NCBI GenBank assembly: GCA_964643595.1
Contig: CAZXTQ010000001.1
Span: 1 to 32,000, forward strand
Length of the DNA: 32,000 nucleotides
Direction of reading: 5' to 3'
Source of the DNA: an uncultured Methanosarcinales archaeon
GTDB taxonomy: Archaea > Nanobdellota > Nanobdellia > Woesearchaeales > UBA11576
Shown here: piece after piece, positions 3,001 through 17,613 of the stretch
Layout of the letters: each line of letters opens with the position of its first letter
Position numbering within the stretch: the first letter of the stretch is position 1
Made by a program: the position numbers and the translations under genes
The notes under the pieces: model-generated
What the model saw: only the letters and a program-made list of their open reading frames with translations
Database searches by the model: none
What the model was told of the DNA's origin: nothing

Positions 3001-4444
3001 GGAGAGCCACTGGACTGTTGTGGTGGAACTTGATTGTCAGTGTGTCTGTTGAGTTATCATACGTTGTATTGTCCAATACTGCATCATAATTCCTGTCGGT
3101 TTTGACCTTGTCATAGCTGACATTTTCTGTAGTGTTTGCCGATAGAATTGTAGCATTCAAAACATTTTCATTAACACCCAGATATTCGGTTGTGTTATCG
3201 AGAGAGTATACAATATCTGATATGTAGAGTACCATTCCTTCGTCAAGCTCTATTTCAAGCCTGTAACGTGGCCTTTCAAATCCTGCAGGCAGTATGCAGG
3301 TATCCGCGCATAGTTCTGTAAATGCATATTTTGGTTTTGGGATGAACCTGACTCTCTTGCTTTCAGCCTCGCCGACTGTGCTTTCGAACCTGACATCTCC
3401 ATCAAGATTCTGGTCAAGATACACTACTTGCGCACTTACATAGTTTGACTCTGTCGAATCATATTTTCCATTGAAAACATACAATGGTGTGTCCCATTCT
3501 GGTTCTTCTGGTGCTACTCCTGCTAGCATGCAGCAGTCTTCTGCTCCGTTGCATACGGTAGTATCGACTCCTTCACTGTTGGACACGATCCACTTGGTGC
3601 ATAATTTGCTCGAATCCACATCCCAGCTGAATTCAGTATCTGCAACAGTTAGATCAACAACTCCATCTTCGATATATGATGTTCCGTCGTCATCTGAGTC
3701 CCACAGTGTTCCTGTGTTATAGTCGAGAACTGTTGTTATTGTCCTTTCTTCAGTTTCCTGTTCAGGAGCCTCTTCAGTTATTTCTTCTTCTACAACATCT
3801 TCCGCAGACGCTTCTTCAACAGATTCTTCTGTCACATTATCAGCAGAAGGGACTTCGCTTGCAGTCACGTCAGGCAGGTCTGTTAATTCGTCTACATACG
3901 CACCTACTTGAGTCACAAAACCTGTTATCACATTTAGTCCATCACTCTGCACACTATCCTGGTCAAGCAATAGATATCTTCTTCCATCAGGTCCTACAAG
4001 GTGTACGCTTGCACTTCCTTCTCCGCTTAACGTACCGCTTATTTTAACAGACTTAAGCTCGAATTCTGCAGGATACGAATCAAGTTCCCACATCAAGTCC
4101 ATGGATGAGGTTACATTTGTATTGACTGATTGTGAATATGTGGTGTACCTCTCGCCGCCTACTACCCAGCCGGTCATTCCTGATTCGAACATGATTGCTC
4201 CAAATATTACTATCATCAGAACAAGTCCTGTTATCCACACTCCTTTCATGTGTGGTTTTGAAAGATGTGATTTCACTCTGTCGATATGTTTTACTATCGG
4301 TCTGGAAACTATGTTGCTCTGCACAGGCCTGCTCACGCTTTTTCCGAGTTCTCTGTTCACACTATCAAGGTCTTTGTTGAGTTTGTGGATATCTCTACCT
4401 GCAAGTGTATCTTCCAGTTCTTCGAATAATGCTTTACGCGGCAT
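1..4444 (-). CDS. Giant cell-surface protein, 5' end complete and 3' end running off the window (at least 1481 codons). Short cytoplasmic N-tail, one TM anchor, acidic linker, then repeated LamG/concanavalin-A-like lectin modules.
   Basis: My manual minus-strand translation is open from the ATG (complement of cat 4442-4444) down to nt 1. It reads MPRKALFEELEDTLAGRDIHKLNKDL...KPHMKGVWITGLVLMIVIFGAIMF (TM), then EEASAEDVVEEEITEEAPEQETEE. A LamG-type signature sits at about 905-1365: SGYTMSAWIYP...WQHVAITYDGSSMTFYVNGT...LYIGNRQAGDRNFQGKIDEFMIFNHSLTPTQVQEIW. The gene is absent from the ORF track because no stop falls in the window. The + strand track ORFs at 753-4505 are antisense shadows. Confidence 0.8.
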   Translation of the reverse strand, partial: MPRKALFEELEDTLAGRDIHKLNKDLDSVNRELGKSVSRPVQSNIVSRPIVKHIDRVKSHLSKPHMKGVWITGLVLMIVIFGAIMFESGMTGWVVGGERYTTYSQSVNTNVTSSMDLMWELDSYPAEFELKSVKISGTLSGEGSASVHLVGPDGRRYLLLDQDSVQSDGLNVITGFVTQVGAYVDELTDLPDVTASEVPSADNVTEESVEEASAEDVVEEEITEEAPEQETEERTITTVLDYNTGTLWDSDDDGTSYIEDGVVDLTVADTEFSWDVDSSKLCTKWIVSNSEGVDTTVCNGAEDCCMLAGVAPEEPEWDTPLYVFNGKYDSTESNYVSAQVVYLDQNLDGDVRFESTVGEAESKRVRFIPKPKYAFTELCADTCILPAGFERPRYRLEIELDEGMVLYISDIVYSLDNTTEYLGVNENVLNATILSANTTENVSYDKVKTDRNYDAVLDNTTYDNSTDTLTIKFHHNSPVALPLFVKGKVNAELSVNESRAGEEVTAVISNWSNRRFRIVVGSHSEVFEFGNPVELTVNASVLDADGKSAGANIEFIDSLLEETVATKTSGESEEVIDEGEYNIIIDMPDEHPVKQISIEDVEIYENLSSLINIEDVDEVTQNLTEYVEVYAIDPTSMNFTNATVTVTATGTMLYKCADWNFTTQSCYGEWVLFMEDLVPGQDYEFVLTPDDPGFGESGPMGYDDTISSSTGTASLSWSHTVGTNENRILVVGVEAESVSESVATDTCRATSVTYNSIALTKAAGYELDDSGADQCVSLWYLLNPDSGSATVSVTYAGTLRESNAGAISIYGAAQQAPEATNTNYATGNPSSITTSITTTTDNSVVFDAVGSGSSGEFSPTQSNTERVDLGGTTAQIGISTKEIVSAGSTNMGWSQSASRLVHVLGVFAPAAAENTAPTHNTPTLSSSGGTDTTDEDITVYNQSTYDADSDSVKNIINWYKDSVSIAVLNLPFEGKNGFESTATQDYSGYSNDGTVTGAAWSETGGHDGFGAYTFTDDMISVSDDPSIELTSSGYTMSAWIYPTGYGELTYGRIVEKGDSATKGYVWYLSNTVSGSQTYEGMRVAHYANPAIYAQTNDYVIDLNTWQHVAITYDGSSMTFYVNGTDVTENGNIASFVPDTSNTLYIGNRQAGDRNFQGKIDEFMIFNHSLTPTQVQEIWQNGGATIVSEETTLGDVWKAEITPNDGEADGSTLESNTLTIVDNAEPERPGGNYDNCNGATINSSAFGNQMTSGDESDIYATGTGYYVLDSENDASELTLHTSGLKNNFTKYTVDAWLDEDLGTGRGWHFGIGTGSLYEQENCETNTGYSPSDGYFVCFKGNNGGTQLVRVDSGAETVIASNENNVGTDGYQNYTIELNQSGVFVFINDTVWINSSDTTYTQGYITISTGGGTSNRGNISVNNVWYFDGQSNYPPTHSNPTLTSSLGTNYTSENLTANNVSTYDADSDSVKNIINWYKDSVSI

Positions 4445-4873
4445 TGTCTTGTTCTGGGCTTTTTTGTTCTGCCCTCTTTTTCTTGGTCCGGGTGTAGACT
4501 GTTGAGACAGTCTTGTCTGATCTGCTGAGTGCGACTGCTATCTGATGGTTGGAGAACTTTGCTTGTTCTCTGAGATATTCTACTACAACTTCAAGGATTG
4601 AAAGTGATCTATCTGTAACAACAGAGAGTGGTATCTGTACGAGTTGTCCTTTTTTGATAGAAGGTTTTTCTGATTCGCGTTTCTTGCGCGACCGGTCATA
4701 AAGTGTCCAGATGTTTCTTTCATCTCTGTTTGTCAGTTCTGCTATCTGGTGGAATGAATATCCTGATGAGTCCTTGAGATACTCTACAATTGCTTCTAGA
4801 AATGAGAGTGCTCTGTCATAGAATATTGTCGTAGGTATGAGTACTTCGGACTGAGAAATAGGCTGTTTGCCAT
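4434..4873 (-). CDS. Tandem helix-turn-helix DNA-binding protein (two ~62-aa sigma-70 region 4/LuxR-like repeats). The frame is open over 4434-4964 but contains no in-frame ATG, GTG or TTG. The nearest ATG (4873-4871) is offset by one base.
   Basis: Minus-frame translation: NGKQPISQSEVLIPTTIFYDRALSFLEAIVEYLKDSSGYSFHQIAELTNRDERNIWTLYDRSRKK followed by KKGQLVQIPLSVVTDRSLSILEVVVEYLREQAKFSNHQIAVALSRSDKTVSTVYTRTKKK, then a stop at 4436-4434. The stop overlaps the ATG of the giant gene by 11 nt. The internal duplication and amphipathic HTH pattern argue for real coding. The start is unresolved. Confidence 0.5.
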
Positions 4874-5003
4874 TCCTTGGCTCTAAAAGACCGCTATTAA
4901 CGACCTCTTCTCCTAAATTAATCTTTTTTAGCCTCTTTTTCGATAAAAAAGCTATATTTTGCCTTTAAGTTACGAAAGGATGATTTTTTCGCATTTTAAT
5001 TAT

Positions 5004-5211: not shown

Positions 5212-6054
5212 TTATACAAGAAGTGGTGTGACAAATACTTCTATCAGTGCCGCAAGGAACAATGCGATGATTGATATTGCCATGATGTCAAGCGAGTCAA
5301 GCATCTGTTTCCTGAATTCGGGTGTTCCAAACTCATGTTTGATTACGCCTATAGATAATATGCCTCCTGCAAGCGCTCCTACAAAATAAGCGACTATTTC
5401 GAATATTCCGTGAGTCATATATTTTAGTACGCCTATAGAAACAAGCTGGGAGTATGCTCCGAAGGAGGGTACTGTGTTGACCATTACTTTGTTCCGGATA
5501 AATATGCCTATCGCAACACCAACTACGGATGCATTCCATGTGAGTATGAATATTGCGCCTGCTCCAAAGAAGAACGACATGACAAAACAGAATATCAGTA
5601 TTTTCATGTTGTTCGCAAGTATGGGCAATGCATTGCCTATTGTTGATATGAAGTTGCCTGTCGGAGTTGCGCTAGTCACCTGCGATATTGTATCGATCTG
5701 CACGCTGAATGCTTCATTCACAGTATTGACTGGAAGCACGACAAAAAGTATCAGGAATGCTGCAACAAATCCAAGAAAAAGGAAAGTGAATGCTGAGACT
5801 GCTTTGCCATGTTCTTTTATCAGCCAGTATTCTTTTTGTGGGGTGTTGTCTTTCATCGCCTCGTATTTAATCATATTATATAATAGAGGCACTGAACATA
5901 TTGCTGTAAGTGTGACCATGATCAGGCTTATGTGTTCTTTGAACACCCACCAGCTCATGAGGAATGAGAATCCTGCATATGCTAATCCGACGAGAAATAA
6001 TTCCCACGGCTCTTTTTCTGCTCTCCGAGGACTAAACAAGGATTCGAGTACCAT
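5212..6054 (-). CDS. Polytopic membrane protein, SpoIIM-like (stage II sporulation protein M / DUF95 family).
   Basis: 280-aa track ORF with about six hydrophobic segments. The motif ILANNMKILIFCFVMSFFFGAGAIFILTWNASVVGVAIG resembles SpoIIM-family proteins. Confidence 0.6.
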   Translation of the reverse strand: MVLESLFSPRRAEKEPWELFLVGLAYAGFSFLMSWWVFKEHISLIMVTLTAICSVPLLYNMIKYEAMKDNTPQKEYWLIKEHGKAVSAFTFLFLGFVAAFLILFVVLPVNTVNEAFSVQIDTISQVTSATPTGNFISTIGNALPILANNMKILIFCFVMSFFFGAGAIFILTWNASVVGVAIGIFIRNKVMVNTVPSFGAYSQLVSIGVLKYMTHGIFEIVAYFVGALAGGILSIGVIKHEFGTPEFRKQMLDSLDIMAISIIALFLAALIEVFVTPLLV

Positions 6055-6456: not shown

Positions 6457-6675
6457 ATGATGCATATAAGGCGTTTGAGTTTGCTTGTAGCATTGATTAT
6501 AATATTTGTCCTTACTGGGATTGCTTTTCTTATGTCTGTTTTAGGTGGTGATCCTGTTACTGGTTCTGCTGTAGGAACTTCTGCAGTTCAACCTATTAGG
6601 TTGAGCATAGTGCTTCCGGGTCTGTTATTCATAGGTTTTGTCCTCCTTACAATCTTTTATCTTGAGAAAAAATAG
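6457..6675 (+). CDS. 72-aa membrane peptide. N-terminal signal/TM segment, Gly/Ser-rich middle, C-terminal TM ending IFYLEKK. Paralog of 19815-20033.
   Basis: Track ORF. It aligns without gaps and at equal length to the 19815-20033 product, sharing GG at residues 30-31 and P.LLF.G.LL..IFYLEK at the C-terminus. Confidence 0.6.
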   Translation: MMHIRRLSLLVALIIIFVLTGIAFLMSVLGGDPVTGSAVGTSAVQPIRLSIVLPGLLFIGFVLLTIFYLEKK

Positions 6676-6685
6676 GTTGCCTGCC

Positions 6686-7387
6686 ATGCCTCAATACAAT
6701 ATAATCCGTTTCGACACTATTGATTCTACTAATTCTTTTTTGAAAGCACATTGCGCAGAGTACCCTGACCTTACGGTCATTGTATCAAAGATACAGACTG
6801 GAGGGAAAGGACGTTTCAACAGGGGGTGGTTATCTCCTGAAGGCGGTCTTTGGTTTTCAGTCCTTGTTCACCATACAAATCCAGAAAAGGCTTTCCTGCT
6901 GACTTTTGCAGCTGCAGTTGCGATGGCCGATACCTTGGCATCTCAGAGTCTTTGCTCAGAGATAAAATGGCCTAATGATCTCCTGGCTAACAGAAAGAAG
7001 CTGTGCGGGATACTTACTGAAAATATTATATCAGGAGATGAGTGCGACAGCATAGTGGGTGTGGGTATTAATATAAACAATGCGCCTCCGCTAGAGACTT
7101 CAACATCTGTGAAGATTGGGCTCGGAAAAGCTGCCGACCCAAATATTCTTCTAGAGCATTTTATGGATTCTTTTGCTGGCTATTGCGGAATGTTTAGACA
7201 AGGTGAGTACACTAATATTATAGATTCATGGAATTCTCATTGGAATGGTAGTGGTAAGAGAATCAGTGTAAATACAATCAAAGGAGGTATATGTGGTATT
7301 GCTAAGGGCATATCTGCTGATGGCGCGTTGATTATACAGACTGATGATGGAGAAGTAGAAATTATTGAAGGTGATCTGTCAATGTAA
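6686..7387 (+). CDS. birA: Biotin--[acetyl-CoA-carboxylase] ligase (BirA catalytic type, no obvious N-terminal HTH).
   Basis: MPQYNIIRFDTIDSTNSFLK, the biotin-binding loop GGKGRFNRGW, and KWPNDL. I prefer the internal ATG at 6686 to the track start at 6638, which overlaps the preceding gene. Confidence 0.85.
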   Translation: MPQYNIIRFDTIDSTNSFLKAHCAEYPDLTVIVSKIQTGGKGRFNRGWLSPEGGLWFSVLVHHTNPEKAFLLTFAAAVAMADTLASQSLCSEIKWPNDLLANRKKLCGILTENIISGDECDSIVGVGININNAPPLETSTSVKIGLGKAADPNILLEHFMDSFAGYCGMFRQGEYTNIIDSWNSHWNGSGKRISVNTIKGGICGIAKGISADGALIIQTDDGEVEIIEGDLSM

Positions 7388-7398
7388 TTGTTTTGGTA

Positions 7399-8940
7399 TC
7401 ATCGGGTGAGGTTTATCGTGCCTTCTTCTATGGCTCTTCTTGTCCAGTTGTCTATTTCTTGGTCTAGTAGTTTATGTTTGTATTCTTTTTCATATATCGC
7501 TGTAGCAATGATGGCTATCATCTCTGGTGCGAGCGTTTTTTTGATGTGTGCATCGATAATGCCTTTCTCCCTGATGAAGTCAGTGCTTAATCTGCCTTTT
7601 TTCATATCAGGATGGTCTATGACTGTCTTGCAGAATGATATGTTGTTGATTATGCCTTCTATCTTCAGGTGCGTGAGTGCATCTGACATCGCCTTTATTG
7701 CAGAGCGACGGTCTTTTGACCATACCATCACTTTTGCAAGCAGAGAGTCATATTGAGGGTTTACTTTAATTCCTGAGTATATTGCAGTATCTATCCTTAG
7801 TCTGTATTGTCCTGATATCTCTTTTTCTGGTTTTGAGGATAGTGCTGCGTGTGCTACTATGCCTCTTGATGGGCTGAAGTTGTCTCTGGTATTTTCTGCG
7901 ATTATCCTGCACTCTATTGCGTGACCGTTCAGGTTTATGTCGGTCTGTCTGATGGATATCGGGCTGCCTTGTGCTATCCTTATCTGTTCCATGACTAGGT
8001 CTACTCCTGTAATCATCTCAGTTATGCCATGCTCTACCTGTATCCTTGGATTTATCTCAAGGAAATACAGTTTGCCTGATTCATCAAGAAGGAATTCAAC
8101 TGTTCCCACTCCTGCATATCCTGCTCTAAGAGCCAGCTCACAGACTTTTTTTCCGAACTCTTCTTTGATCTTTCTGCTGAGAGGTGATGGTGCTTCTTCT
8201 ATGAGTTTTTGGTGTCTCCGCTGGATTGAGCATTCTCTGTCAGAGAGGTGTACTGCTTTTCCGTGCTTGTCTGCCATGAACTGTATCTCAATATGTCTTC
8301 CGCGGATGTGTTTTTCTGCAAATAGGTCTTTGCAGTTGAAGGTTGCTGTAGCCTCATTTAGTGATGCTTCAAACAGGGTCTGTATGTTCTCTTCCTTATA
8401 GACGATACGTATTCCTTTTCCTCCTCCGCCTTTGCATGACTTCAGGACTAAGGGGTAGCCGTTATCAGATCCGAATTTTCGGGCATCATCTGCAGTGTAT
8501 AGCCTTGTGCTGCTTCCTATTGTTTCTAGTCCTGATTCTCTGGCAAGGTCCTGCGCTGCGAGTTTGTCTGCGACCCTGTTCAGCGCTTTGGATGACGGTC
8601 CGATGAATAGTATTCCTGCATCTTCGCATGCTTCTGCGAGTTCAGGGTTCTCTGCCAGAAAGCCATAACCTGGATGTAGTGCATCACATCGAGACTTTTT
8701 GGCTACCTTTATTATTTTCTTTATGTTTAAGTGGGTGGATACGAGGTTTTCTCCTTCTATCTTGATGTATTCGTCAGCAGAATGTGCTATTATCTTATTT
8801 CTGTCGTTGGTTGTATAAATGGCAGCAGTCTTGATTCCCATCTGCTTGCATGATCTTATTATCCTTAGGACTATCTCTCCTCTGTTTGCTATGAGTATCT
8901 TCTTGATATTTCTTACTTGATATCTTTTCGCGTGTAACAT
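7399..8940 (-). CDS. accC: Biotin carboxylase subunit of acyl-CoA carboxylase (ATP-grasp).
   Basis: KKILIANRGEIVLRIIRSCKQMGIKTAAIY, GYGFLAEN, GGGGKGIR and EINPRIQVEH are classic AccC motifs. 513 aa, as in archaeal AccC. Confidence 0.9.
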   Translation of the reverse strand: MLHAKRYQVRNIKKILIANRGEIVLRIIRSCKQMGIKTAAIYTTNDRNKIIAHSADEYIKIEGENLVSTHLNIKKIIKVAKKSRCDALHPGYGFLAENPELAEACEDAGILFIGPSSKALNRVADKLAAQDLARESGLETIGSSTRLYTADDARKFGSDNGYPLVLKSCKGGGGKGIRIVYKEENIQTLFEASLNEATATFNCKDLFAEKHIRGRHIEIQFMADKHGKAVHLSDRECSIQRRHQKLIEEAPSPLSRKIKEEFGKKVCELALRAGYAGVGTVEFLLDESGKLYFLEINPRIQVEHGITEMITGVDLVMEQIRIAQGSPISIRQTDINLNGHAIECRIIAENTRDNFSPSRGIVAHAALSSKPEKEISGQYRLRIDTAIYSGIKVNPQYDSLLAKVMVWSKDRRSAIKAMSDALTHLKIEGIINNISFCKTVIDHPDMKKGRLSTDFIREKGIIDAHIKKTLAPEMIAIIATAIYEKEYKHKLLDQEIDNWTRRAIEEGTINLTR

Positions 8941-8976
8941 ATTTCTGGGGGTATAGTGCTCATCATTATTCGATTA

Positions 8977-9438
8977 TTATTCAAATTCTATGAGCACGTC
9001 TCCTTTTGATACTGTCTGATTCTTTTTGGTGTTTACATGTTTTACTTTTGCATCTTTTTGGGATCTTATCTCGTTTTCCATCTTCATTGACATGAGTTTT
9101 ATGATTGTCTGGCCTTTCTTGACCGCAGCGCCTTCAGGGACCTTAACTGCAGTTATTATCCCTTGCATAGGGCTTCTGAGGAATCTGGAGTCTTCTTGGT
9201 TGTCATATGCCTTTTCCACACAATATGTCTCTTGACCTATGGTTATTCGGGAAGTTCCGTCATCATCAGTGGCAGTCCTTACTTCATAAGTATTCCTGTC
9301 GGTGTGTATCAGAGGTCCTTCGACAGATGTAGATACTTTTGCTGTTTTTATTTTCTCACCGGAAATAGTGACTTCGTAGCTGTCTCTGCCTGGTTTGATC
9401 GTGACTTCAAAGATGTGTCCGTCTATGTTGAGTTTCAT
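8977..9438 (-). CDS. accB: Biotin carboxyl carrier protein.
   Basis: C-terminal biotinyl domain PMQGIITAVKVPEGAAVKKGQTIIKLMSMKMENEI with the MKM biotinyl-lysine motif. Lies between accC and the carboxyltransferase gene. Confidence 0.8.
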   Translation of the reverse strand: MKLNIDGHIFEVTIKPGRDSYEVTISGEKIKTAKVSTSVEGPLIHTDRNTYEVRTATDDDGTSRITIGQETYCVEKAYDNQEDSRFLRSPMQGIITAVKVPEGAAVKKGQTIIKLMSMKMENEIRSQKDAKVKHVNTKKNQTVSKGDVLIEFE

Positions 9439-9452
9439 CTTGTAGAAACAGT

Positions 9453-10970
9453 TCAGAGTGGCATGTTGCCGTGTTTTTTCAGTCTGCGCTGGACTCTTTT
9501 TGTGGCTAGGCTTTCAAGTGATTTTATGAGTGTCTGCCTTGTCTTGGATGGATCTATTATCATGTCTATGCTTCCTATATCTGCCGCCACATAAGGGTTA
9601 AGGAACTTCTCTGAGTATTCTTGTTGTCTGACCTGTCTGTCTTCGGATCCTTTGAAGATTATTTCGGCTGCCTGACGTGACCCCATCACGGCTATCCGTG
9701 CGATGGGCCACGCTATTACCTGGTCAAAGCCCATCTCTTTGGAGCACATTACTATATATGCGCCACCGTATGCTTTTCTCATTATGAGTGATATTTTAGG
9801 TACTGTTGATTCTGCGTAGGCGTATAGCAGGTCTGCGCCATGTTTTATTATTCCGTGGTATTCTTGTTCTTTTCCTGGGAGGTATCCTGGGACGTCAACA
9901 AAATTTATGAGTGGTATGTTGAATGCATCACAGAACCTGACGAATCTTGCGGCTTTTTCTGATGCGTCTATGTCTATGCAACCGGCTAGCATGCTTGGTT
10001 GGTTGGCCACGACGCCGACCACTTTATTGTTCAGTCTTGCGAGAGCAATCACTATGTTCTTTGCGAATGCAGGCTGTATTTCCATGACAGAATTCTTGTC
10101 GAGAACTTCACAAAGGACGTCTTTTACATCGTAGCTTTTTTCAGGGTCTGCAGGCACTATTTTCATGAGCTTCTTTGTATTGCGGTTAGGTGTGTCGCCT
10201 GTCTTCATAAGTGGTGGTTTTGTAATGTTGTTGAGTGGCAGGTAGCTGAGTAGTTTCCTGACTTTTGTGAGTGCATCTGGTTCAGATTGCTCTTCGAAGT
10301 GTGCTACTCCGGTCATCTCTGCGTGGACTTCGGCTCCGCCAAGCTCGTCAGGTGATACTTTTTCAGAAAGCACGCTTTTTATTACTCGCGGTCCTGTTAT
10401 GAACATCTTGCTGAGACCTTTTACCATGAATACAAAATCAGTAAGTGCTGGAGAGTATACTGCACCTCCTGCGCAGGGTCCTGCTACGACCGATATCTGA
10501 GGGACCACTCCGCTGGCTTCTGTGTTTCGCTGGAATATCCTTGCGTAACCGTCGAGAGCCTTTATGCCTTCCTGGATTCGCGCCCCTCCGGAGTCTTCGA
10601 TACCTATTATCGGACAGCCAGTCTTTATTGCAAGATCCATTATCTTGACTATTTTTTTGGCATGCATCTCACCTAGTGTGCCGCCTTTCTGTGTGAAGTC
10701 CTGTGCGTATACGCAGACATGTCTTCCGTCTATTTTTCCATATCCTGTTACGACTCCGTCGCTCTTTAAGTGTTGCATCTGAGGGTCGGATGATCTTACG
10801 AACAGGTCTGTCTCTACGAATGTTTTCTTGTCTAGAAGCATGACTATTCTTTCCCTTGCAGTTAGCTTGTTGTTGTCGTGTTGCTTGTTTGCAGGGATAT
10901 TCTTTGTATTTTTCTCTTTTTTCAGGAATTCTGCATTCCTCTGCATGAATTCGTCAGCTCGTCTGGACAT
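9453..10970 (-). CDS. pccB: Acyl-CoA carboxylase carboxyltransferase subunit (propionyl-CoA carboxylase beta / methylmalonyl-CoA decarboxylase alpha family).
   Basis: KLTARERIVMLLDKKTFVETD, GVVTGYGKIDGRHVCVYAQDFTQKGGTLGE and GIEDSGGARIQEG are typical of single-chain CT subunits. Confidence 0.85.
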   Translation of the reverse strand: MSRRADEFMQRNAEFLKKEKNTKNIPANKQHDNNKLTARERIVMLLDKKTFVETDLFVRSSDPQMQHLKSDGVVTGYGKIDGRHVCVYAQDFTQKGGTLGEMHAKKIVKIMDLAIKTGCPIIGIEDSGGARIQEGIKALDGYARIFQRNTEASGVVPQISVVAGPCAGGAVYSPALTDFVFMVKGLSKMFITGPRVIKSVLSEKVSPDELGGAEVHAEMTGVAHFEEQSEPDALTKVRKLLSYLPLNNITKPPLMKTGDTPNRNTKKLMKIVPADPEKSYDVKDVLCEVLDKNSVMEIQPAFAKNIVIALARLNNKVVGVVANQPSMLAGCIDIDASEKAARFVRFCDAFNIPLINFVDVPGYLPGKEQEYHGIIKHGADLLYAYAESTVPKISLIMRKAYGGAYIVMCSKEMGFDQVIAWPIARIAVMGSRQAAEIIFKGSEDRQVRQQEYSEKFLNPYVAADIGSIDMIIDPSKTRQTLIKSLESLATKRVQRRLKKHGNMPL

Positions 10971-11728
10971 TATGTGTGATACCCTCCGTTTGCGGATATT
11001 ACTTCGCCTGTGGTGTAGGTCGCATCTGCTACAAGGAACAGTGCTATTTTTGCTATCTCTGAAGGTTCTGCAAGCCGTTTCATGGGATTTGCGTCTATGT
11101 ACATCTGTCTGAACTTGTCGTCGACTCCGCGCATCATGTCGGTCTCTACGCCGCCTGGTGCGATGGCATTTACAGTTATCCCATGACGTGCGACTTCAAG
11201 TGCGATTGATTTTGTAAAACCTACCACTCCCCACTTTGCAGCGGCATAATTGGACTGGCCGAAAGCGCCTGTCTGACCGTACAAGGAGGATATGTTGATT
11301 ATGCGTCCGCCGTTATGTTCGATCATATGATTGACAAGAGCACGTGTCATGTTGAAGGTTCCGTTCAGGTCTATATCTATGACTTTATGCCATTGGGATA
11401 CTTCCATCTTCAAGAGGAGTGAAGGACTGACTATGCCTGCGTTGTTGACGAGTATATCTATGCGGCCAAAGAATTCTTCTGCCTGTTTTACTAATGATTC
11501 TGCTTCTTCATATTTTGATATGTCTGCCTTTGCAAGGTATGTCCTGACCGGGTGTGTCCGTCCTTCACATATCTTTTTTATATCTTCTTCAGTGGCGCGG
11601 GCTGCTTCGTCGTTCCGCGAATAGTTTATGACTATATTACATCCCTGACGGGCAAACTCTAATGCAATTGCCTTCCCTATCCCTCTAGAGCTACCTGTTA
11701 TGATTGCAGTTTTTCCTTGGAGTTTCAT
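10970..11728 (-). CDS. fabG: Short-chain dehydrogenase/reductase, 3-oxoacyl reductase (FabG-like).
   Basis: TGSSRGIGKAIA cofactor-binding motif, NNAGI, and catalytic S...YAAAKWG. Its stop codon shares one base with the start codon of the CT gene. Confidence 0.8.
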   Translation of the reverse strand: MKLQGKTAIITGSSRGIGKAIALEFARQGCNIVINYSRNDEAARATEEDIKKICEGRTHPVRTYLAKADISKYEEAESLVKQAEEFFGRIDILVNNAGIVSPSLLLKMEVSQWHKVIDIDLNGTFNMTRALVNHMIEHNGGRIINISSLYGQTGAFGQSNYAAAKWGVVGFTKSIALEVARHGITVNAIAPGGVETDMMRGVDDKFRQMYIDANPMKRLAEPSEIAKIALFLVADATYTTGEVISANGGYHT

Positions 11729-11780
11729 GTCTTCACCTTTTTCAATTTAATTAATTTAAGTTTTTGTGGTTTTTTGATGT

Positions 11781-12545
11781 TTATTTTTTCTTGTCAATAA
11801 ATGCAGATATTGCATCTTTTGCTTGCTGAGTTCCTAGACATTTTTTGAATTCGGATATCCCCTTTTCAGTTGTGTTCTCTATTTCAGAAGCTGCAGCTAT
11901 TTTTTTTATTGCGGCGACTGCGGCAGGATTTTGCGAGTTAACCTTTTCAGCAATCATTTCTGCGCGATTCATTATGTTCCAACTGTTGCTTATTTCATCT
12001 ATTAGACCCATATTCAGTGCTTCTTTCGCAGTGATTGTCCTTCCTGTTAAAAGTAGGTTCATTGATTTTCTTTTACCTACTTGTCTCACGAGCCTTTTTA
12101 TCCCTCCTGCTCCGGGAATAAGTCCTATTTTTATCTCAGGAAGTGAGAATTTTGCTGTAGGAGTTGCTATTATGTAGTCGAATGCGAGCGTTATCTCAAA
12201 ACCTCCACCTACGCAGTATCCGTTGACTACCGCGATGCTAAACTTGTCAGATATTTCAAGCTCGTCAAGAACAGTCGCGCCAAGCTTGACACCTTCCATG
12301 ACTTTGTTGTTTGTCAGATTTCTGAAGTCATTTATGTCCAGGCCAGTGCAGAATGACTGGTTCCTTCCGCTGACTATTATTGTGGAGATGCTATTATCTC
12401 TTATACCTGATCTTACTGCTGCAGAGAATTCTTTGACTGTCTCACTGTGTAGGACCGGATATTTATTCATCGAACCTATTGTTATATGTAGTGTTTTTCC
12501 TTTTTTTTCTTTAAGTATGGTTGTTTTGTTTTTTGTGGTGCTCAT
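11781..12545 (-). CDS. Enoyl-CoA hydratase (crotonase superfamily).
   Basis: AVVNGYCVGGGFEITLAFDYIIATPTAKFSLPEIKIGLIPGAGGIKRL. Both catalytic Glu positions of rat ECH are present (GGGFE and LPEI). Confidence 0.8.
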   Translation of the reverse strand: MSTTKNKTTILKEKKGKTLHITIGSMNKYPVLHSETVKEFSAAVRSGIRDNSISTIIVSGRNQSFCTGLDINDFRNLTNNKVMEGVKLGATVLDELEISDKFSIAVVNGYCVGGGFEITLAFDYIIATPTAKFSLPEIKIGLIPGAGGIKRLVRQVGKRKSMNLLLTGRTITAKEALNMGLIDEISNSWNIMNRAEMIAEKVNSQNPAAVAAIKKIAAASEIENTTEKGISEFKKCLGTQQAKDAISAFIDKKK

Positions 12546-12549
12546 TTTT

Positions 12550-13572
12550 TCACCGATTTTTTTTGTACCATCGCAGGACGTTTGCTCCCCATGATAGTCC
12601 TGAACCGAATGCTACAGTGACGATGAGGTCTCCATCATGAAGTTTTCCGCCACGGTTTGCTTCATCGATTACCGTCAGGACAGACCCTCCTCCTATGTTT
12701 CCGTGTCGCTGTACATTTGTGATTGTCTTGTTCATCGGAAGCCCGAGCATTCTCATACCTTCTTTTATGATGTTGAGGTTTGCCTGATGGGGAAATACAT
12801 ATTTTATCTTTGATATCGATGTTCCTGTCTTCTCAAGGACCTGTTTGATAGCATTCTCAAATTTATCTACTGCGAATTCAAATATTGGTCTTCCATTCAT
12901 GTGGATATGGTATTCTCCTGATTCTATGACTTCCTGCGAGAAAACTTTTTTGGATCCTCCGACGAATATTCCGAGGTTCTCTGCACCGTCTGCTTTTGAT
13001 CCGAGTACGCTTCCGATCAGTCCGTATCCTTTCTTGACTCGGGATACTACTGCTGCTGCAGCTCCATCTCCAAAGATGACTGATGTTACTCTGCTGTGTG
13101 GGTATTTTGAGAATATCTCTCCGTTGATTATCAAGCCTGTCTTGTACCTTCCTGATTCTATCATACTTGCCGCGATTTCCAGACAATAGGGTACTCCTCC
13201 GCAGATTATGTTTAAGTCTATCGCGAATGCCTGTTCTGCACCGATAGCTTTCTTGACAAGGTTTCCTGTGAATAGTGTTGCAGGGTAATCGTGGCTCATC
13301 GCGCCGGTGATTATGAAGTCTATTTCAGAAGGTGCTATTTTTGCATCCTCGAGTGCTTTACGTGCGGCAGGTATTGCAAGGTCTGACAATGCTAGTTCGG
13401 AGCATGCAAATCTTCTTTCTTTTATTCCGGTCTTTGTGATTATCCACTCGTCTGTTGTATCGACCAGGTTTTCAAGTTCTTTATTGGTTACTCTGCGAGG
13501 AGGGAAGTATGTTCCCGTACCTATTATTCCTGCGGAGTATATTGATTCTTTTCTGAACAAGTAGTTCACCAT
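12550..13572 (-). CDS. fabH: KAS III-type condensing enzyme (FabH / NphT7-like thiolase fold).
   Basis: A Cys-His-Asn triad in the expected contexts: AIDLNIICGGVPYCL, FPHQANLNII, GNIGGGS. 340 aa. Confidence 0.8.
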   Translation of the reverse strand: MVNYLFRKESIYSAGIIGTGTYFPPRRVTNKELENLVDTTDEWIITKTGIKERRFACSELALSDLAIPAARKALEDAKIAPSEIDFIITGAMSHDYPATLFTGNLVKKAIGAEQAFAIDLNIICGGVPYCLEIAASMIESGRYKTGLIINGEIFSKYPHSRVTSVIFGDGAAAAVVSRVKKGYGLIGSVLGSKADGAENLGIFVGGSKKVFSQEVIESGEYHIHMNGRPIFEFAVDKFENAIKQVLEKTGTSISKIKYVFPHQANLNIIKEGMRMLGLPMNKTITNVQRHGNIGGGSVLTVIDEANRGGKLHDGDLIVTVAFGSGLSWGANVLRWYKKNR

Positions 13573-13613
13573 CTTTTTTGATTATTGTTGAAATTAATTT
13601 TTTCTTTTTTTCT

Positions 13614-14447
13614 TCAGATGTGTTTTTTGAAGAATGTTACTGCTTCTTTACACACGTCTGGAAGCGTTCTTTTGAGGAAATGTCCGTCGTCAACTTCAAT
13701 GATGTTTTTGTCTTTAGAGCCGCAGAGGTTAAACATCTCTTTCACAATATTTGTGTTTATCATCCTATCTTTTTTTGATTGTATAAATAAAGTTGGTATT
13801 TTTATTTTTGGGAGGACTGTTCTCGTATCGAGTCCATTTATGAGTTCTGGTATAAATTTTCTAGGGCTATAGTGCAGACCTGTGCCTTTTTCTAGTTTCA
13901 CGACGTGAAGTTCGCGCTGACTATCGGGTACGAGTCTTTTTATCCTTATCTTTTCGACCAGCCATGCAAGCGAGTACCTGAAATACCTGGTGTTGAACTG
14001 TCTGCTTCTGCGTTCCATATAGTCATAATCAGGATAGGAGTTGACAAGCGTAATTGCTTTGACTTTATTGTTTGTGGCTGCGCAGTATGTTGCGGGTATG
14101 CCTCCATAGCAGAAACCGAACAGCGCGACATTGTTTTTTTTGTATCTCTTGGTTAGGTGTGAGATTATCTTATCAAGGTCTTCAGGAAGTTTTTTTGCAG
14201 AGAATTCTCCTGTTGATTCATTATGCGCTCTGCGATCATATGCAAATGCGGTAAATCCTTTTGCTGAGATATATTCAGCGAACTTGGTTGTTATGTTCCA
14301 TCTGTTCAGGCTAAGACCTGTATCTATTATGACGATTGATTTTGGATGAAGATCTTTCTTGGGTTTGAATATTGTACCCACTATATCTGCATCGCCTACA
14401 TTAATTTTGATGTCTTCCATAATCTTGTGATTTGCTATTTTTGGCAT
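13614..14447 (-). CDS. Alpha/beta-hydrolase with a Cys nucleophile (dienelactone-hydrolase-like). First gene of the acyl operon.
   Basis: The nucleophile elbow reads ALFGFCYGGIPA (G-x-C-x-G, as in the DLH motif GYCLGG) rather than G-x-S-x-G. A C-terminal DDGHF supplies a candidate His. Confidence 0.65.
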   Translation of the reverse strand: MPKIANHKIMEDIKINVGDADIVGTIFKPKKDLHPKSIVIIDTGLSLNRWNITTKFAEYISAKGFTAFAYDRRAHNESTGEFSAKKLPEDLDKIISHLTKRYKKNNVALFGFCYGGIPATYCAATNNKVKAITLVNSYPDYDYMERRSRQFNTRYFRYSLAWLVEKIRIKRLVPDSQRELHVVKLEKGTGLHYSPRKFIPELINGLDTRTVLPKIKIPTLFIQSKKDRMINTNIVKEMFNLCGSKDKNIIEVDDGHFLKRTLPDVCKEAVTFFKKHI

Positions 14448-14487
14448 TTTTTTATTTGTTTAGTAACTATTGGTGTCCTTTTTATTA

Positions 14488-14495
14488 TTTATAAA
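14488..14495. promoter_or_regulatory. Palindromic TATA box TTTATAAA in the divergent promoter region between the acyl operon and the 1007-aa gene.
   Basis: Its near (minus-side) edge lies 41 nt upstream of the minus-strand ATG at 14447. The same octamer precedes S3Ae, trkA and hisS. Confidence 0.45.
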
Positions 14496-14589
14496 CATAT
14501 ATACCAATATTTTTATAAGGATTGCTTTATATTTTAGGTATTCTTATTAACTATGATTGTGTAGTTACTGGTTTGGTGAAGTGAAGCGT

Positions 14590-17500
14590 ATGGGGGAGAA
14601 CACAGGTCTAAGTGAGTTGGAGCATCTTGTGGAAAGGTGGCGGGTTCAGTTCAATCCTTTTGTGGAAGAACGTTTTTTGACAGGTAGAGAAATACCTGGG
14701 CGGGTTGTCCGTGAAAGTGTGGAGTATTTCTTTGAGTCGGGAGGTGAACCTGGTATTATAGCTCGAGAGTTAGGGTCTAAGTTCAGAGAATCAAGTAATA
14801 GGGGTCTTTTTGGTGTCAGTTCAATTTCTGTCGATGATCTTCTGGATGATTCAAGATTCTATACTGATGAGACTTTTGCACTGCTGTCTTTCCTGCTGAA
14901 GATTGATCGTGGAGATGCTTCTTTCTGTTTCAATTCAGTTGAATCTGAGTTGTACGATGCAGGGCATAAGCTTTATGAGGTTGCACCCCTACGCTCAAAA
15001 GTGTTTATAGAGCCTAATTCTTCAGGCAGTGTTAGTTGTCGTAATTTTGGGGCTGCGTTGGATACTATGCGGGATATCTGTTCTGAGCGGGCACAGGATA
15101 GGGGTTGGGATGTTGATAAATATGTTAATTCTCGTCTGGAGTTTTTATTCAGGATGTTCAATGTATTTATCAACAATGAAGGATTGTACATAGATCGAAA
15201 AGACCTTATTGACCCGAGATTATGGGTGCGGTATGAGGCGTCGCAGTTTTTCCTTGAGGCCTGTAAGATTGTGACAGGACGAAGCGATTTCGTCAAGATT
15301 ATGGCTGCGCGTAATTTTCCAGTATTTATCAAACTTCTTGCTAACATCTTAGATGTTGGAACTGGATTTCATGAGATAACTGGAATAGCTAACAAGTATA
15401 ATTCATTGCTGGATATTGGTCTTAAAGAGAGGGGAACTGGATATGCAGTAGTATCTGTGACTCCTTCAGATGTTCTGAGGGATATTGCAGGTAAACGTTT
15501 CAATGCGTGTATGCAGTTATCTTGTGATGTTGCTAAGTATACTATGGAGAAGATTCCTAAGCTGTACGGTCTGAATAGTTATGGATTTGTTGAAGTTTCG
15601 TGCTGTGTTGAAAATGCGATTGATTTTTCTGACCGGGCAGGGGGTATGGTGCCAAAAGGTCATATTTGTGAGTATCATTACAAATGGTTTCCTATAGCAA
15701 CAGGTTGGAGAAGGCTTTTGAACCCCGTTTTCCTCTTAGGCGCTGCTAATATTCCTTTGATACCTGCGGTAATCGGGTCTGATATGTCTTCTCTTGAGAA
15801 AGTTCTCATGATAGGTACAGGTCTGATTGCACCGTTAGGTGCTGCTGCTGTGAATAAGATATTCAACCAACAGAGGCACATAGGTGATATCGAGGAATAT
15901 CATCGTATACAGGAAAATAAAGCAGAGCAGCAACGTCATGACTTGCTCCAGCGTGAGATTGATGTGGCTAAGACCAATCTGGAACATACGTACAGCAGTC
16001 TTTATCTCATGAGTCTTCAGTACACAGATTATCTTAGGTTATTGAAGGGAGGGGATATAGATGCTGCTTTGTCTCAGATGGACACTCTCCAGGATACTGT
16101 TGTAAAGTATTTGGAAGATACTGCGTTGAAGGGTGCTCGTAACACAGGTCTTTTAGATTTTAGGCGTAAGTTGGATGATGCTGCGCTGTTCCTTGCATAT
16201 GGGCAGGCTGTCGACGGGACGTTCAATCCTCTTACTGGCAAGAGTGGTAGTGCAGTATTTCTTACAGAGTCTGATGAGAAACGTACTAACATATCTAAGC
16301 GTTTTGCTTTAAAGGAGATGGGTTCTGTCGAGGCACTGGTCTATTCCTGGTTTAGGGATAAGGGTATGAAGGAGATGATGCGGTTCCCTACTCCTGAAAT
16401 TCTTGCTTATAGGGTTGTGCCAAGTTGGGATGAATCTAAAAGTTGTATTGTTGAGGTTCCTATAATGTTGATGGAACAGATTGACGGACCTACTCTTTAT
16501 GATTTTTTCAGGATGTTGAACAATAAGACTTGTTTAGATGGTTCTGGAAATGATTTGACAAGACACTATATTGACAGTCTTAAAGATTCAGTCATAGATA
16601 GATTGTTGGAAAGGTACTGTTACCTGACGGATCAATTGCAGAGTGATGAAGAAGGTTCTCTTGGAAGACATCTTGATTTGGGGGGTGTGGTTCGTATACG
16701 CGAAGGTGCTTATATTGCCAAGACGACAGAAGTGTTTGAGGATTGTTTAATGGGTGATGCTTGTCCTGACAGTCAGAAAGAGGTATTGTACGTGGTCGCC
16801 CAGATTATAGGTGAGGTTCTGGATAAGGTGAAGAAGGTTCCGTTCATTGATATGGGTTCTTTGAACGCAAGTCTTCCTGCAAGGTCACTTTATTCCCGGC
16901 TTCTTCTTTTACATGAAGGTGTGGACGATTTCAGCGCAGAGGTTTCTGCAGTTGAAAAGCCTGCACGTACGACTATGGAGCTTGCGCTTGATGATATGGT
17001 GTCGCATATGGACGATGCAGATTTCCGCGAGAATATATTCGATGTGTGTGCTGATGAATTGGTTCGTTTTGATTTTGAGAAGCTCAGGATAGACACGTTA
17101 GAGTTTGATGACCTGAGTCATATGACTGATTTCTTGCCTTACGGTTCGTCACCAGAGCGAAGGGCTAAGGTTAATGCGAGATACCTTGCGTTGAGATATG
17201 TTGCTAAAGACGAGCCTTGCGGACAGCATATTCTGGGGCTGATTCATGAAGGTCGGACTGATGATGCTGTTGAACTCATGCGCTCGGTCATAGATTATTC
17301 TAGTATTGAGTCTGAGCGCGCACTTGTATCTATATACAGGAATCTGCGTTGGGTGCGGTTCTATTCAGACTTGGATGCTGATAAGTTTGATGATCTGCAT
17401 TCTAAAAAGCAGACTCGTGAGTATCATTTAAATATTATACTTGAGGACATAGGGGTATATCTAAGAGAGAACAGCATCGGCAGAATGCAGGATAGGGTGA

Positions 17501-17613
17501 TATCTTTGGATTCTGCTTGGCAGGATGTTTCTGATAGGGGCATCATTGGAGCTTTAAGTTACTTGAAACATTACCTGAATGGCATTATTGATGATGGGGG
17601 GGGGCAATCTTGA
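14590..17613 (+). CDS. Large (~1007 aa) membrane-hairpin protein of unknown family. N-terminal ~370-aa domain, two TM helices, a coiled coil, and a C-terminal region with protein-kinase-like motifs.
   Basis: The track ORF is 14557-17613. I prefer the ATG at 14590, which has GGTGA upstream. TM pair: LLNPVFLLGAANIPLIPAVIG and VLMIGTGLIAPLGAAAVNKIF (~15715-15870). Coiled coil: EEYHRIQENKAEQQRHDLLQREIDVAKTNLE. Kinase-like string: GKSGSAVFL, FALKE, LMEQIDGPTLYDF, FIDMGSLN, VDDFS or RFDFE. Confidence 0.7.
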   Translation: MGENTGLSELEHLVERWRVQFNPFVEERFLTGREIPGRVVRESVEYFFESGGEPGIIARELGSKFRESSNRGLFGVSSISVDDLLDDSRFYTDETFALLSFLLKIDRGDASFCFNSVESELYDAGHKLYEVAPLRSKVFIEPNSSGSVSCRNFGAALDTMRDICSERAQDRGWDVDKYVNSRLEFLFRMFNVFINNEGLYIDRKDLIDPRLWVRYEASQFFLEACKIVTGRSDFVKIMAARNFPVFIKLLANILDVGTGFHEITGIANKYNSLLDIGLKERGTGYAVVSVTPSDVLRDIAGKRFNACMQLSCDVAKYTMEKIPKLYGLNSYGFVEVSCCVENAIDFSDRAGGMVPKGHICEYHYKWFPIATGWRRLLNPVFLLGAANIPLIPAVIGSDMSSLEKVLMIGTGLIAPLGAAAVNKIFNQQRHIGDIEEYHRIQENKAEQQRHDLLQREIDVAKTNLEHTYSSLYLMSLQYTDYLRLLKGGDIDAALSQMDTLQDTVVKYLEDTALKGARNTGLLDFRRKLDDAALFLAYGQAVDGTFNPLTGKSGSAVFLTESDEKRTNISKRFALKEMGSVEALVYSWFRDKGMKEMMRFPTPEILAYRVVPSWDESKSCIVEVPIMLMEQIDGPTLYDFFRMLNNKTCLDGSGNDLTRHYIDSLKDSVIDRLLERYCYLTDQLQSDEEGSLGRHLDLGGVVRIREGAYIAKTTEVFEDCLMGDACPDSQKEVLYVVAQIIGEVLDKVKKVPFIDMGSLNASLPARSLYSRLLLLHEGVDDFSAEVSAVEKPARTTMELALDDMVSHMDDADFRENIFDVCADELVRFDFEKLRIDTLEFDDLSHMTDFLPYGSSPERRAKVNARYLALRYVAKDEPCGQHILGLIHEGRTDDAVELMRSVIDYSSIESERALVSIYRNLRWVRFYSDLDADKFDDLHSKKQTREYHLNIILEDIGVYLRENSIGRMQDRVISLDSAWQDVSDRGIIGALSYLKHYLNGIIDDGGGQS

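Follow-up and report, generated by a model that had tools for sequence, protein, structure and literature searches.

Positions 7399-14447 (minus strand) of a 32,000-nt contig stretch from an uncultured archaeon, hereafter the window, carry a real, conserved and unusual hybrid operon in which an acyl-CoA carboxylase of three subunits is encoded together with a FabH-like condensing enzyme (3-ketoacyl-acyl carrier protein synthase III, KAS III), a crotonase-family enoyl-CoA hydratase (ECH) and a ketoreductase of the short-chain dehydrogenase/reductase type (SDR). The host is a DPANN archaeon and, judging from a gene on the same contig, a Woesearchaeote. We propose that this vertically inherited operon encodes a self-contained, malonyl-CoA-driven line that would build acyl chains on coenzyme A (CoA) thioesters rather than on acyl carrier protein (ACP), and we put the probability of this reading at slightly below one half (about 0.47). 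Archaeal fatty-acid synthesis and the firmness of the bacterial-archaeal "lipid divide" are open questions, and DPANN archaea are usually assumed to be lipid scavengers. Published surveys record only "bacterial fatty-acid genes" in some Woesearchaeota. The operon offers a concrete, compact and conserved set that can be directly expressed and reconstituted: the core of six genes, BirA, and a first gene that varies between an off-loading enzyme and a dehydratase. If the intermediates are indeed CoA esters, FabH would be repurposable in nature without ACP, at least one DPANN lineage would spend ATP on its own acyl chains, and a ready-made ATP-driven acyl-CoA module would be at hand for metabolic engineering.

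In the proposed line, the carboxylase, consisting of biotin carboxylase (BC), biotin carboxyl carrier protein (BCCP) and carboxyltransferase (CT) subunits, would convert acetyl-CoA, HCO3- and ATP to malonyl-CoA. The KAS III, primed by an acyl-CoA, would condense decarboxylatively with malonyl-CoA itself to give a 3-ketoacyl-CoA, in the manner of NphT7, a KAS III able to use malonyl-CoA directly (PMC5509993). The SDR would then use NADPH to form the 3-hydroxyacyl-CoA, and the crotonase would dehydrate it to the trans-2-enoyl-CoA, a step that a FabZ-like hotdog protein may share in sister lineages. The first gene of the operon would act on the product; here, a hydrolase with a Cys113-Asp-His triad would off-load or transfer the acyl group through a thioester intermediate, whereas the first gene of sister lineages would contribute a dehydratase specific for the (R) form. 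Synthesis may end at C4, with 3-hydroxybutyryl- or crotonyl-CoA, or it may iterate, with an enoyl reductase encoded elsewhere, to fatty acyl chains. The sequence shows the gene content, the catalytic competence, the conservation and a CT that permits acetyl-CoA; the thioester carrier, the chain length and the end product are inferred.

Conservation and archaeal setting of the operon

The first-pass annotation described a seven-gene operon. Seven open reading frames (ORFs) are indeed present in the window, but the conserved unit has six genes, encoding KAS III, ECH, SDR, CT, BCCP and BC, and the slot in front of them, occupied here by the hydrolase, is variable. Among the seven lineages compared (the window and the related loci L085, L001, L083/L084, L170, L171 and L173), the order KAS III-ECH-SDR-CT-BCCP-BC is invariant, with KAS III proteins 51-68% identical to that of the window. 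Six other related loci, on different contigs and from different samples, show the six genes in unchanged order, so that their clustering goes beyond chance. The view that the carboxylase, the KAS III, the ketoreductase and the crotonase are all intact and under joint selection is supported. CT (64-85% identity) and SDR (65-80%) are the most conserved proteins across the lineages; ECH, at 40-42% identity, is among the least conserved, yet both of its catalytic Glu residues are kept. The first gene encodes the Cys-hydrolase in the window and in L085, a 153-aa FabZ-like hotdog in L001 and L084, and one 402-aa fusion of an N-terminal Cys-hydrolase with a C-terminal FabZ/ApeI-like hotdog in L170 (8730-9938); it is missing in L171 and L173. 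Downstream, birA is convergent at the same position in L001, L084, L085 and L170 and was not seen there in L173.

The genes are packed on one strand as tightly as had been claimed, the ORF list giving gaps of 41, 4, 52, -1 (a 1-nt overlap), 14 and 36 nt from the hydrolase to BC, and the end of birA lies, again as annotated, 11 nt from the BC stop (Table 1). The divergent intergenic region upstream contains TATA-like elements, such as TTTATAAATA about 40 nt before the hydrolase ATG, and is presumed from its sequence to be the archaeal promoter region of the operon. A sigma-70 and terminator scan, which is ill-suited to an archaeon, returned signals at the level of shuffled sequence.

The archaeal host that had been claimed is supported by a histidyl-tRNA synthetase (HisRS) on the same contig, which is nearest to Candidatus Woesearchaeota. 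Its relatives with names are all Candidatus Woesearchaeota or Nanoarchaeota, at identities of up to 73% (matches overall reach 84%), which places the host among the DPANN archaea. Genes for ribosomal protein S3Ae and a Bud32/RIO-like kinase in the window agree with an archaeal host; TrkAH is encoded there too. Woesearchaeota are tiny archaea of a symbiotic type. It could be argued that the cluster is a bacterial contaminant or part of a chimeric assembly, since the nearest relatives of KAS III, SDR and hotdog are bacterial. The chance of this is negligible: G+C is uniform, at 0.41-0.46 across the cluster and 0.34-0.47 across the window, and on contigs from at least six separate samples, drawn from JGI, ENA, NCBI and Logan, the cluster has identical archaeal neighbours, namely S3Ae, a MazE-like protein, SpoIIM and a giant surface protein. 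Furthermore, one 150-kb contig carries both the cluster and a Woesearchaeotal HisRS. This conserved synteny of cluster and archaeal flanks, present in six other related loci, effectively refutes contamination, and the contig is not chimeric. In the species-representative genome collection no KAS III relative above 43% identity was found, the matches being all bacterial FabH, so that the lineage is absent from that collection and rare. Looking up the exact window KAS III sequence returned no contig. A scan of metagenome contigs with the clade alignment retrieved only bacterial FabH at 34-42% identity and was dominated by the generic FabH pattern VIFGDGAGA.

Table 1. Genes of the operon and adjoining features in the window
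Feature	Position	Strand	Basis and remarks
Cys-nucleophile alpha/beta-hydrolase, 277 aa	13614-14447	-	Pfam Hydrolase_4 + Abhydrolase_1; accessory first gene
KAS III (FabH-like condensing enzyme), 340 aa	12550-13572	-	Pfam ACP_syn_III + ACP_syn_III_C
ECH, crotonase-family enoyl-CoA hydratase/dehydratase, 254 aa	11781-12545	-	Pfam ECH_1
SDR, FabG/PhaB-type 3-ketoacyl reductase, 252 aa	10970-11728	-	Pfam adh_short
CT, PccB/MmdA-type carboxyltransferase subunit of acyl-CoA carboxylase, 505 aa	9453-10970	-	Pfam Carboxyl_trans
BCCP, biotin carboxyl carrier protein, 153 aa	8977-9438	-	Pfam Biotin_lipoyl
BC, biotin carboxylase subunit (ATP-grasp), 513 aa	7399-8940	-	Pfam Biotin_carb_N, CPSase_L_D2, Biotin_carb_C
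BirA biotin-protein ligase, without repressor domain	6638-7387	+	Pfam BPL_LplA_LipB; TIGR00121
Presumed promoter region, 109-nt AT-rich divergent intergenic, upstream of the operon	14448-14556	.	read from sequence

Catalytic equipment of the encoded enzymes

The domain identities first assigned to the cluster genes are each backed by Pfam and NCBIfam, and the catalytic residues named for every enzyme are all present. All three components of an acyl-CoA carboxylase are encoded with functional motifs (ATP-grasp BC, MKM and Carboxyl_trans). BC has accC-type NCBIfam matches of about 1e-150 and conserves the HPGYGF, GGGGKG and EINPR motifs. BCCP matches Biotin_lipoyl (1.6e-14), and its biotinyl-Lys is K119 in SMKME (codon 9082-9084), with MKM kept in the five cluster loci examined. 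CT matches Carboxyl_trans at 5.5e-179. The carboxylase had been called archaeal-type, which fits its three-subunit architecture but not its sequence affinity, the best solved match of CT being Thermotoga PccB (1vrg, 3.7e-179), ahead of human PCCB, S. coelicolor PccB and S. tokodaii 1x0u, each at about 1e-160. At the specificity position (GGAY-I; PccB-D422/AccB-I420), CT has Ile406, which aligns with the Asp of human PCCB, the residue of propionyl-specific enzymes at this place, and GGAYI is found in the five cluster loci examined. Mutagenesis of the Streptomyces and Thermobifida enzymes has shown that Ile at this CT position favours acetyl-CoA (PMC7835884), and the cluster CT, as judged from this residue, carries the variant permitting acetyl-CoA. 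The adjacent BirA, which scores 172.6 bits against TIGR00121 (cutoff 83), presumably biotinylates BCCP, and its adjacency is explained by the presence of the carboxylase.

Two other assignments of the gene set were considered and rejected. Biotin or pimelate synthesis, with a BioZ and a BioH-like esterase next to birA, does not agree with the scores (BioZ structures at about 1e-30 versus FabH at 1e-63; bioH 26 bits, cutoff 207). The crotonase, whose best structure is a 3-hydroxypropionyl-CoA dehydratase, would fit a piece of the 3-hydroxypropionate cycle, but malonyl-CoA reductase is missing and that cycle has no place for a KAS III.

The KAS III has the FabH domains (PF08545 and PF08541) and the catalytic triad C124 (codon 13201-13203), H262 and N292, which corresponds to E. 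coli C112, H244 and N274 and is invariant in the 13 members of its clade. An NphT7-like mode of condensation had been envisaged for it. By every score the enzyme is FabH-like. It reaches 306.4 bits against NF006829 (above the cutoff of 249) and 289.2 bits against TIGR00747 fabH (just under the cutoff of 292.1), and its best PDB matches are all FabH, from 3.6e-63, with PqsD at 8e-40 and BioZ at about 1e-30. The clade (P0001-P0013) is monophyletic, with 97-99 of 100 neighbour-joining bootstraps, and adjoins a group that includes other archaeal KAS IIIs (Thermoplasmatota, Diapherotrites). In this sequence tree, the KAS III is with good support sister to FabH-like enzymes. Beyond the neighbour group rich in archaea, its nearest named homologues are bacterial FabH proteins at 40-46% identity. 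A replacement of FabH Phe87 by Gly, Ser or Thr, which would suggest a wider primer pocket, is apparent only; it lies beside a one-residue indel and is not relied on.

The crotonase matches ECH_1 (1.1e-43, 149.8 bits) and has the catalytic residues E117 (GGGFE) and E137 (LPEI), both kept in the five cluster loci aligned. Its best solved relatives are the M. sedula 3-hydroxypropionyl-CoA dehydratase 5zai (1.4e-41) and C. acetobutylicum Crt 5z7r. The original description of a CoA-type crotonase in place of FabZ is therefore right in its first part, the crotonase being nearest to CoA-dependent enzymes; the absence of FabZ holds for the window lineage only, as a FabZ-like hotdog heads the cluster in L001, L084 and L170. 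The SDR has the catalytic residues S148, Y161 and K165, the TGxxxGIG motif and the N-S-Y-K tetrad, and the YxxxK spacing identifies it as a ketoreductase and not an enoyl reductase. It matches adh_short at 1.4e-61 and falls below the cutoffs of both TIGR01830 FabG (264.7 bits, cutoff 297.75) and TIGR01829 acetoacetyl-CoA reductase (257.4 bits, cutoff 302.1). Its PDB matches include FabG proteins (to about 1e-59) and PhaB (7e-54), so that FabG and acetoacetyl-CoA reductases are about equally close.

The hydrolase has a triad of C113 in GFCYG (codon 14109-14111), D227 and H256. Its family is tiny, with 5 matches among 5.8e9 proteins and 6 representatives at E<=1e-30 among 1.84e9; the nucleophile is Cys in seven of the eight family members and Ser in one. 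In the AlphaFold2 (AF2) model (pLDDT 77.9), the nearest folds found by Foldseek are generic esterases, a monoglyceride lipase and the thioesterase DcsB, and the protein is a putative thioesterase or acyltransferase. The release of the product by the Cys-hydrolase, as first envisaged, could apply to the window but is not part of the core, as L171 and L173 have no hydrolase. The hotdog of the sister lineages carries the GHF...PG...E dehydratase motif, and its fusion to the hydrolase in L170, a Rosetta-stone link, argues that these two accessory proteins act in the same pathway. The hotdog is dispensable, being absent from the window, L085, L171 and L173; a hidden hotdog dehydratase in the window was considered and rejected, the best tblastn match having E = 0.048.

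The same hydrolase raises the prospect of polyhydroxyalkanoate (PHA)-like synthesis, in which acetyl-CoA carboxylase (ACC), KAS III and a PhaB-like reductase would give (R)-3-hydroxybutyryl-CoA and the hydrolase would polymerise it as a minimal PhaC. The Cys-Asp-His triad within the lipase-box-like GFCYG, weak local NCBIfam matches (class III PhaC; intracellular PHA depolymerase) and the 257 bits of the SDR against the acetoacetyl-CoA reductase family are consistent with such a role. However, the hydrolase scores 25 bits against TIGR01836 (cutoff 365), is at 277 aa shorter than the 350 positions of this class III PhaC model, has esterases and thioesterases rather than PhaC as its nearest folds, belongs to a family with one Ser member and is dispensable in sister lineages. 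We consider PHA synthesis very improbable.

Acyl carrier protein or coenzyme A as the carrier

The search for ACP covered neighbourhoods only, namely the 32-kb window and about 20-30 kb around each copy of the cluster, with loci of up to 21 kb read in relatives. As first annotated, the sizeable ORFs of the 32 kb are without ACP, FabD, FabF and FabI domains. With an ACP profile that, as a positive control, recovered ACP from 23 of 80 bacterial FabH loci, none was detected in the window, L001/L002, L083/L084, L085/L086 or L087, nor within 8 kb of the L170 KAS III; for L171 and L173 the called genes were covered, and no ACP family is among them. Nor is there a complete type II fatty-acid synthase (FAS II) at these places, with no ACP, FabD, FabF/B or enoyl reductase in the window or the cluster loci.

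The residues through which FabH docks ACP point in the same direction. In an alignment to E. coli FabH (a reference 100% identical to 1HN9), the ACP-docking Arg249 is replaced by Asn267 of the window KAS III (codon 12772-12774). Asn is found at this position in 12 of the 13 clade members (10 of the 11 core members and both outliers), versus Arg in 99 of the 107 nearest other homologues, and position 257 is basic (K/R) in one of the 11 core members versus 82 of those 107. The basic ACP-docking patch of FabH (E. coli R249, K256/K257) is accordingly not kept in the clade, and the SDR equivalents of the E. coli FabG docking residues R129 and R172 are likewise not conserved. Among the loci scanned for this comparison, an ACP lies within 8 kb of 35 of the 164 KAS III genes with Arg249 and of none of the 15 without it. 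As the non-Arg loci amount to about nine independent ones, the contrast is suggestive and does not reach significance.

CoA-type enzymes also adjoin the other Asn249 KAS IIIs of L169, L088, L172 and L087. In the bacterial-looking L169 (1558-8068), five tandem KAS III paralogues without Arg at the FabH-249 position stand with a MaoC dehydratase and 3HCDH, flanked by LytTR, TetR and ABC genes, and there is no ACP in 14 kb. L088 (2768-6372), on a high-G+C bacterial contig, has a crotonyl-CoA carboxylase/reductase-like gene followed by an Asn249 KAS III and an acyl-CoA dehydrogenase. Two DPANN loci carry a KAS III-SDR-MaoC set, beside the membrane acyltransferase HGSNAT_cat in L172 (105-3310; TARA) and beside an acetyltransferase and glycan-synthesis genes in L087 (4507-8952; Ca. 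Diapherotrites GCA_043816965.1). The contexts in L172 and L087 hint at short 3-hydroxyacyl decoration of glycans.

Several points weigh against CoA-bound synthesis, and a number of them speak for the main rival explanation, that part of an ordinary FAS II of bacterial type reached the lineage by horizontal transfer. On that account ACP, AcpS, FabD, FabF and FabI would be encoded elsewhere, the carboxylase would replace AccABCD, and the crotonase would have a side role, for example as a FabM-like isomerase. Genome-wide absence of ACP lies beyond the neighbourhoods searched, and 129 of the 164 bacterial FabH loci, that is most of them, likewise have no ACP nearby. By curated score and nearest solved structures the KAS III is a FabH, the family and structure comparisons of KAS III and SDR have FabH and FabG as their best matches, and the nearest named KAS III homologues outside the archaeal-rich group are the bacterial FabH proteins mentioned above. 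The hotdog that heads the cluster in L001, L084 and L170 is FabZ-like, with its GHF...PG...E motif, and FabZ is typically ACP-dependent. No copy of the cluster contains an enoyl reductase. Furthermore, FabG-type reductases yield (R)-3-hydroxyacyl products and two-Glu crotonases act on the (S) form, so that in the proposed line a reductase of the (R) type would be followed by a hydratase of the (S) type, which is a stereochemical mismatch. The KAS III of A. baumannii has Asn at 249 and yet binds ACP (PMC8036411), for which reason the loss of Arg249 is no proof of ACP independence. FabG, FabI and FabZ have been reported in Woesearchaeota metagenome-assembled genomes (PMC10936187), as have "bacterial fatty acid synthesis" genes in Woesearchaeota (PMC8204110).

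On the other side, Arg249 and the basic residue at 257 are lost specifically in the KAS III clade, FabG R129 and R172 are not conserved, and the neighbourhoods of all seven loci are free of ACP, FabD and FabF. The crotonase belongs to the core, retains the two Glu residues of a hydratase and has its closest counterparts among CoA enzymes, and the hotdog is dispensable. We therefore regard a FAS II fragment with ACP elsewhere as serious but somewhat unlikely. A further account, quite unlikely in our estimate, is a non-iterative short-chain line that makes (R)-3-hydroxybutyryl-CoA or crotonyl-CoA by ATP-driven acetoacetyl-CoA synthesis, as acyl donors for surface glycans, proteins or other acceptors, with the Cys-hydrolase as acyltransferase. 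Such a line would need no enoyl reductase, in keeping with every copy of the cluster, and the Cys nucleophile suits thioester acyl transfer; related DPANN KAS III-SDR-MaoC trios stand beside HGSNAT_cat (L172) or glycan-synthesis genes (L087), and giant Laminin_G_3 surface proteins are syntenic with the cluster. That synteny, however, may reflect vertical inheritance only, the sister KAS III-SDR-MaoC clusters have no carboxylase, no acceptor-specific gene is present in the cluster, and the hydrolase is replaced or absent in five of the seven lineages while the core persists. Returning to malonyl-CoA-driven synthesis on CoA thioesters, its specific form as a natural carrier-protein-free decarboxylative fatty-acyl-CoA synthase, in which one FabH-derived KAS III would serve every round with its own carboxylase, intermediates on CoA and an enoyl reductase encoded elsewhere, is one that we hold to be doubtful.

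Flanking genes and comparison with known systems

Divergent from the operon, positions 14557-17613 (+) encode a 1018-aa protein without Pfam match, overlapped by a second gene (17610-18491, +; 293 aa), likewise without match. Of the seven lineages, at least six have a homologue of the 1018-aa protein (24-44% identity, 950-1234 aa) divergent beside the cluster, confirmed by tblastn in five related loci and in L171 assigned from its position alone. This linkage may have a functional basis or be no more than inherited synteny. On the other side of the operon, 2-4537 (-) encodes a Laminin_G_3-domain surface protein that has at least 1512 aa and runs off the window (the L001 homologue is called at 5659 aa). 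It is preceded by a small helix-turn-helix (HTH) protein (4437-4964, -), sigma-70 region-4-like, and the synteny of a SpoIIM-like membrane protein (5212-6054) with the Laminin_G_3 and HTH genes is kept in relatives. A 310-aa protein with an N-terminal MazE/AbrB-like domain (18734-19666, -) and a 369-aa protein with a Kazal-type protease-inhibitor domain (21804-22913, -), unusual in an archaeon, are both kept in synteny in L170 and L001. Searches across the window (1-32000) returned neither a tRNA gene nor any Rfam family at gathering score.

In the literature searched, neither the operon nor the changes at its ACP-docking residues were found described; Liu 2018 contains nothing on fatty acids, and the supplementary tables of Castelle 2021 contain no matching terms. 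With the initiation module of bacterial type II FAS, the cluster shares the KAS III fold with its Cys-His-Asn triad, a FabG-type ketoreductase, malonyl units from a biotin carboxylase and, in sister lineages, the FabZ-like hotdog. It differs from that system in that the cluster loci are without ACP, FabD, FabF and FabI, Asn stands in for FabH Arg249, the core here includes a CoA-type crotonase, the carboxylase is of the BC/BCCP/PccB type and not AccABCD, and the host is an archaeon. The carboxylase resembles AccC-AccB-PccB of Metallosphaera and Sulfolobus and AccB/PccB of S. coelicolor in its subunit architecture, its MKM site, the similarity of CT (about 1e-160) and the Ile at the AccB-I420 position. 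Unlike the carboxylases of the archaeal CO2-fixation cycles, it is operon-linked to a condensing enzyme, and no epsilon subunit was seen.

Streptomyces NphT7 and the engineered pathways that combine ACC, NphT7, PhaB, a dehydratase and Ter are alike in the chemistry proposed here, in which a KAS III would condense on CoA, ketoreduction and dehydration would follow, and the ATP spent by the carboxylase would drive the condensation. The likeness is one of proposed chemistry, and the best matches of the window KAS III are FabH. Furthermore, the engineered pathway has an enoyl reductase and the cluster has none, and NphT7 sits in a mevalonate cluster whereas the window KAS III does not, with no HMG-CoA synthase, HMG-CoA reductase or mevalonate kinase in the window or the related loci. 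The supply of isoprenoid precursors, which the first-pass annotation had also suggested, is unlikely if Woesearchaeota use the methylerythritol phosphate (MEP) pathway as published (PMC10936187, PMC8204110), and no mevalonate gene lies nearby.

The CoA-dependent FAS complex of S. acidocaldarius consists of a ketothiolase/DUF35, a ketoacyl-CoA reductase, a hydroxyacyl-CoA dehydratase and an enoyl-CoA reductase (bioRxiv 10.1101/2024.07.05.601840). The cluster shares with it an SDR reductase and a dehydratase and, as proposed, ACP-independent archaeal synthesis on CoA esters. The Sulfolobus complex, however, condenses non-decarboxylatively by a thiolase held by the DUF35 protein and needs no malonyl-CoA, in contrast to the decarboxylative KAS III with its own carboxylase here; neither a thiolase nor DUF35 was found in the window or the related loci. 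If ACP is encoded elsewhere in the genome, the operon would still be an unusual hybrid, with bacterial FAS II enzymes served by a three-subunit PccB-type carboxylase and a crotonase. If biochemistry confirms the use of CoA esters, it would represent a third acyl-chain architecture beside ACP-based FAS and the thiolase/DUF35 system of archaea, and a natural counterpart of the engineered NphT7 pathways.

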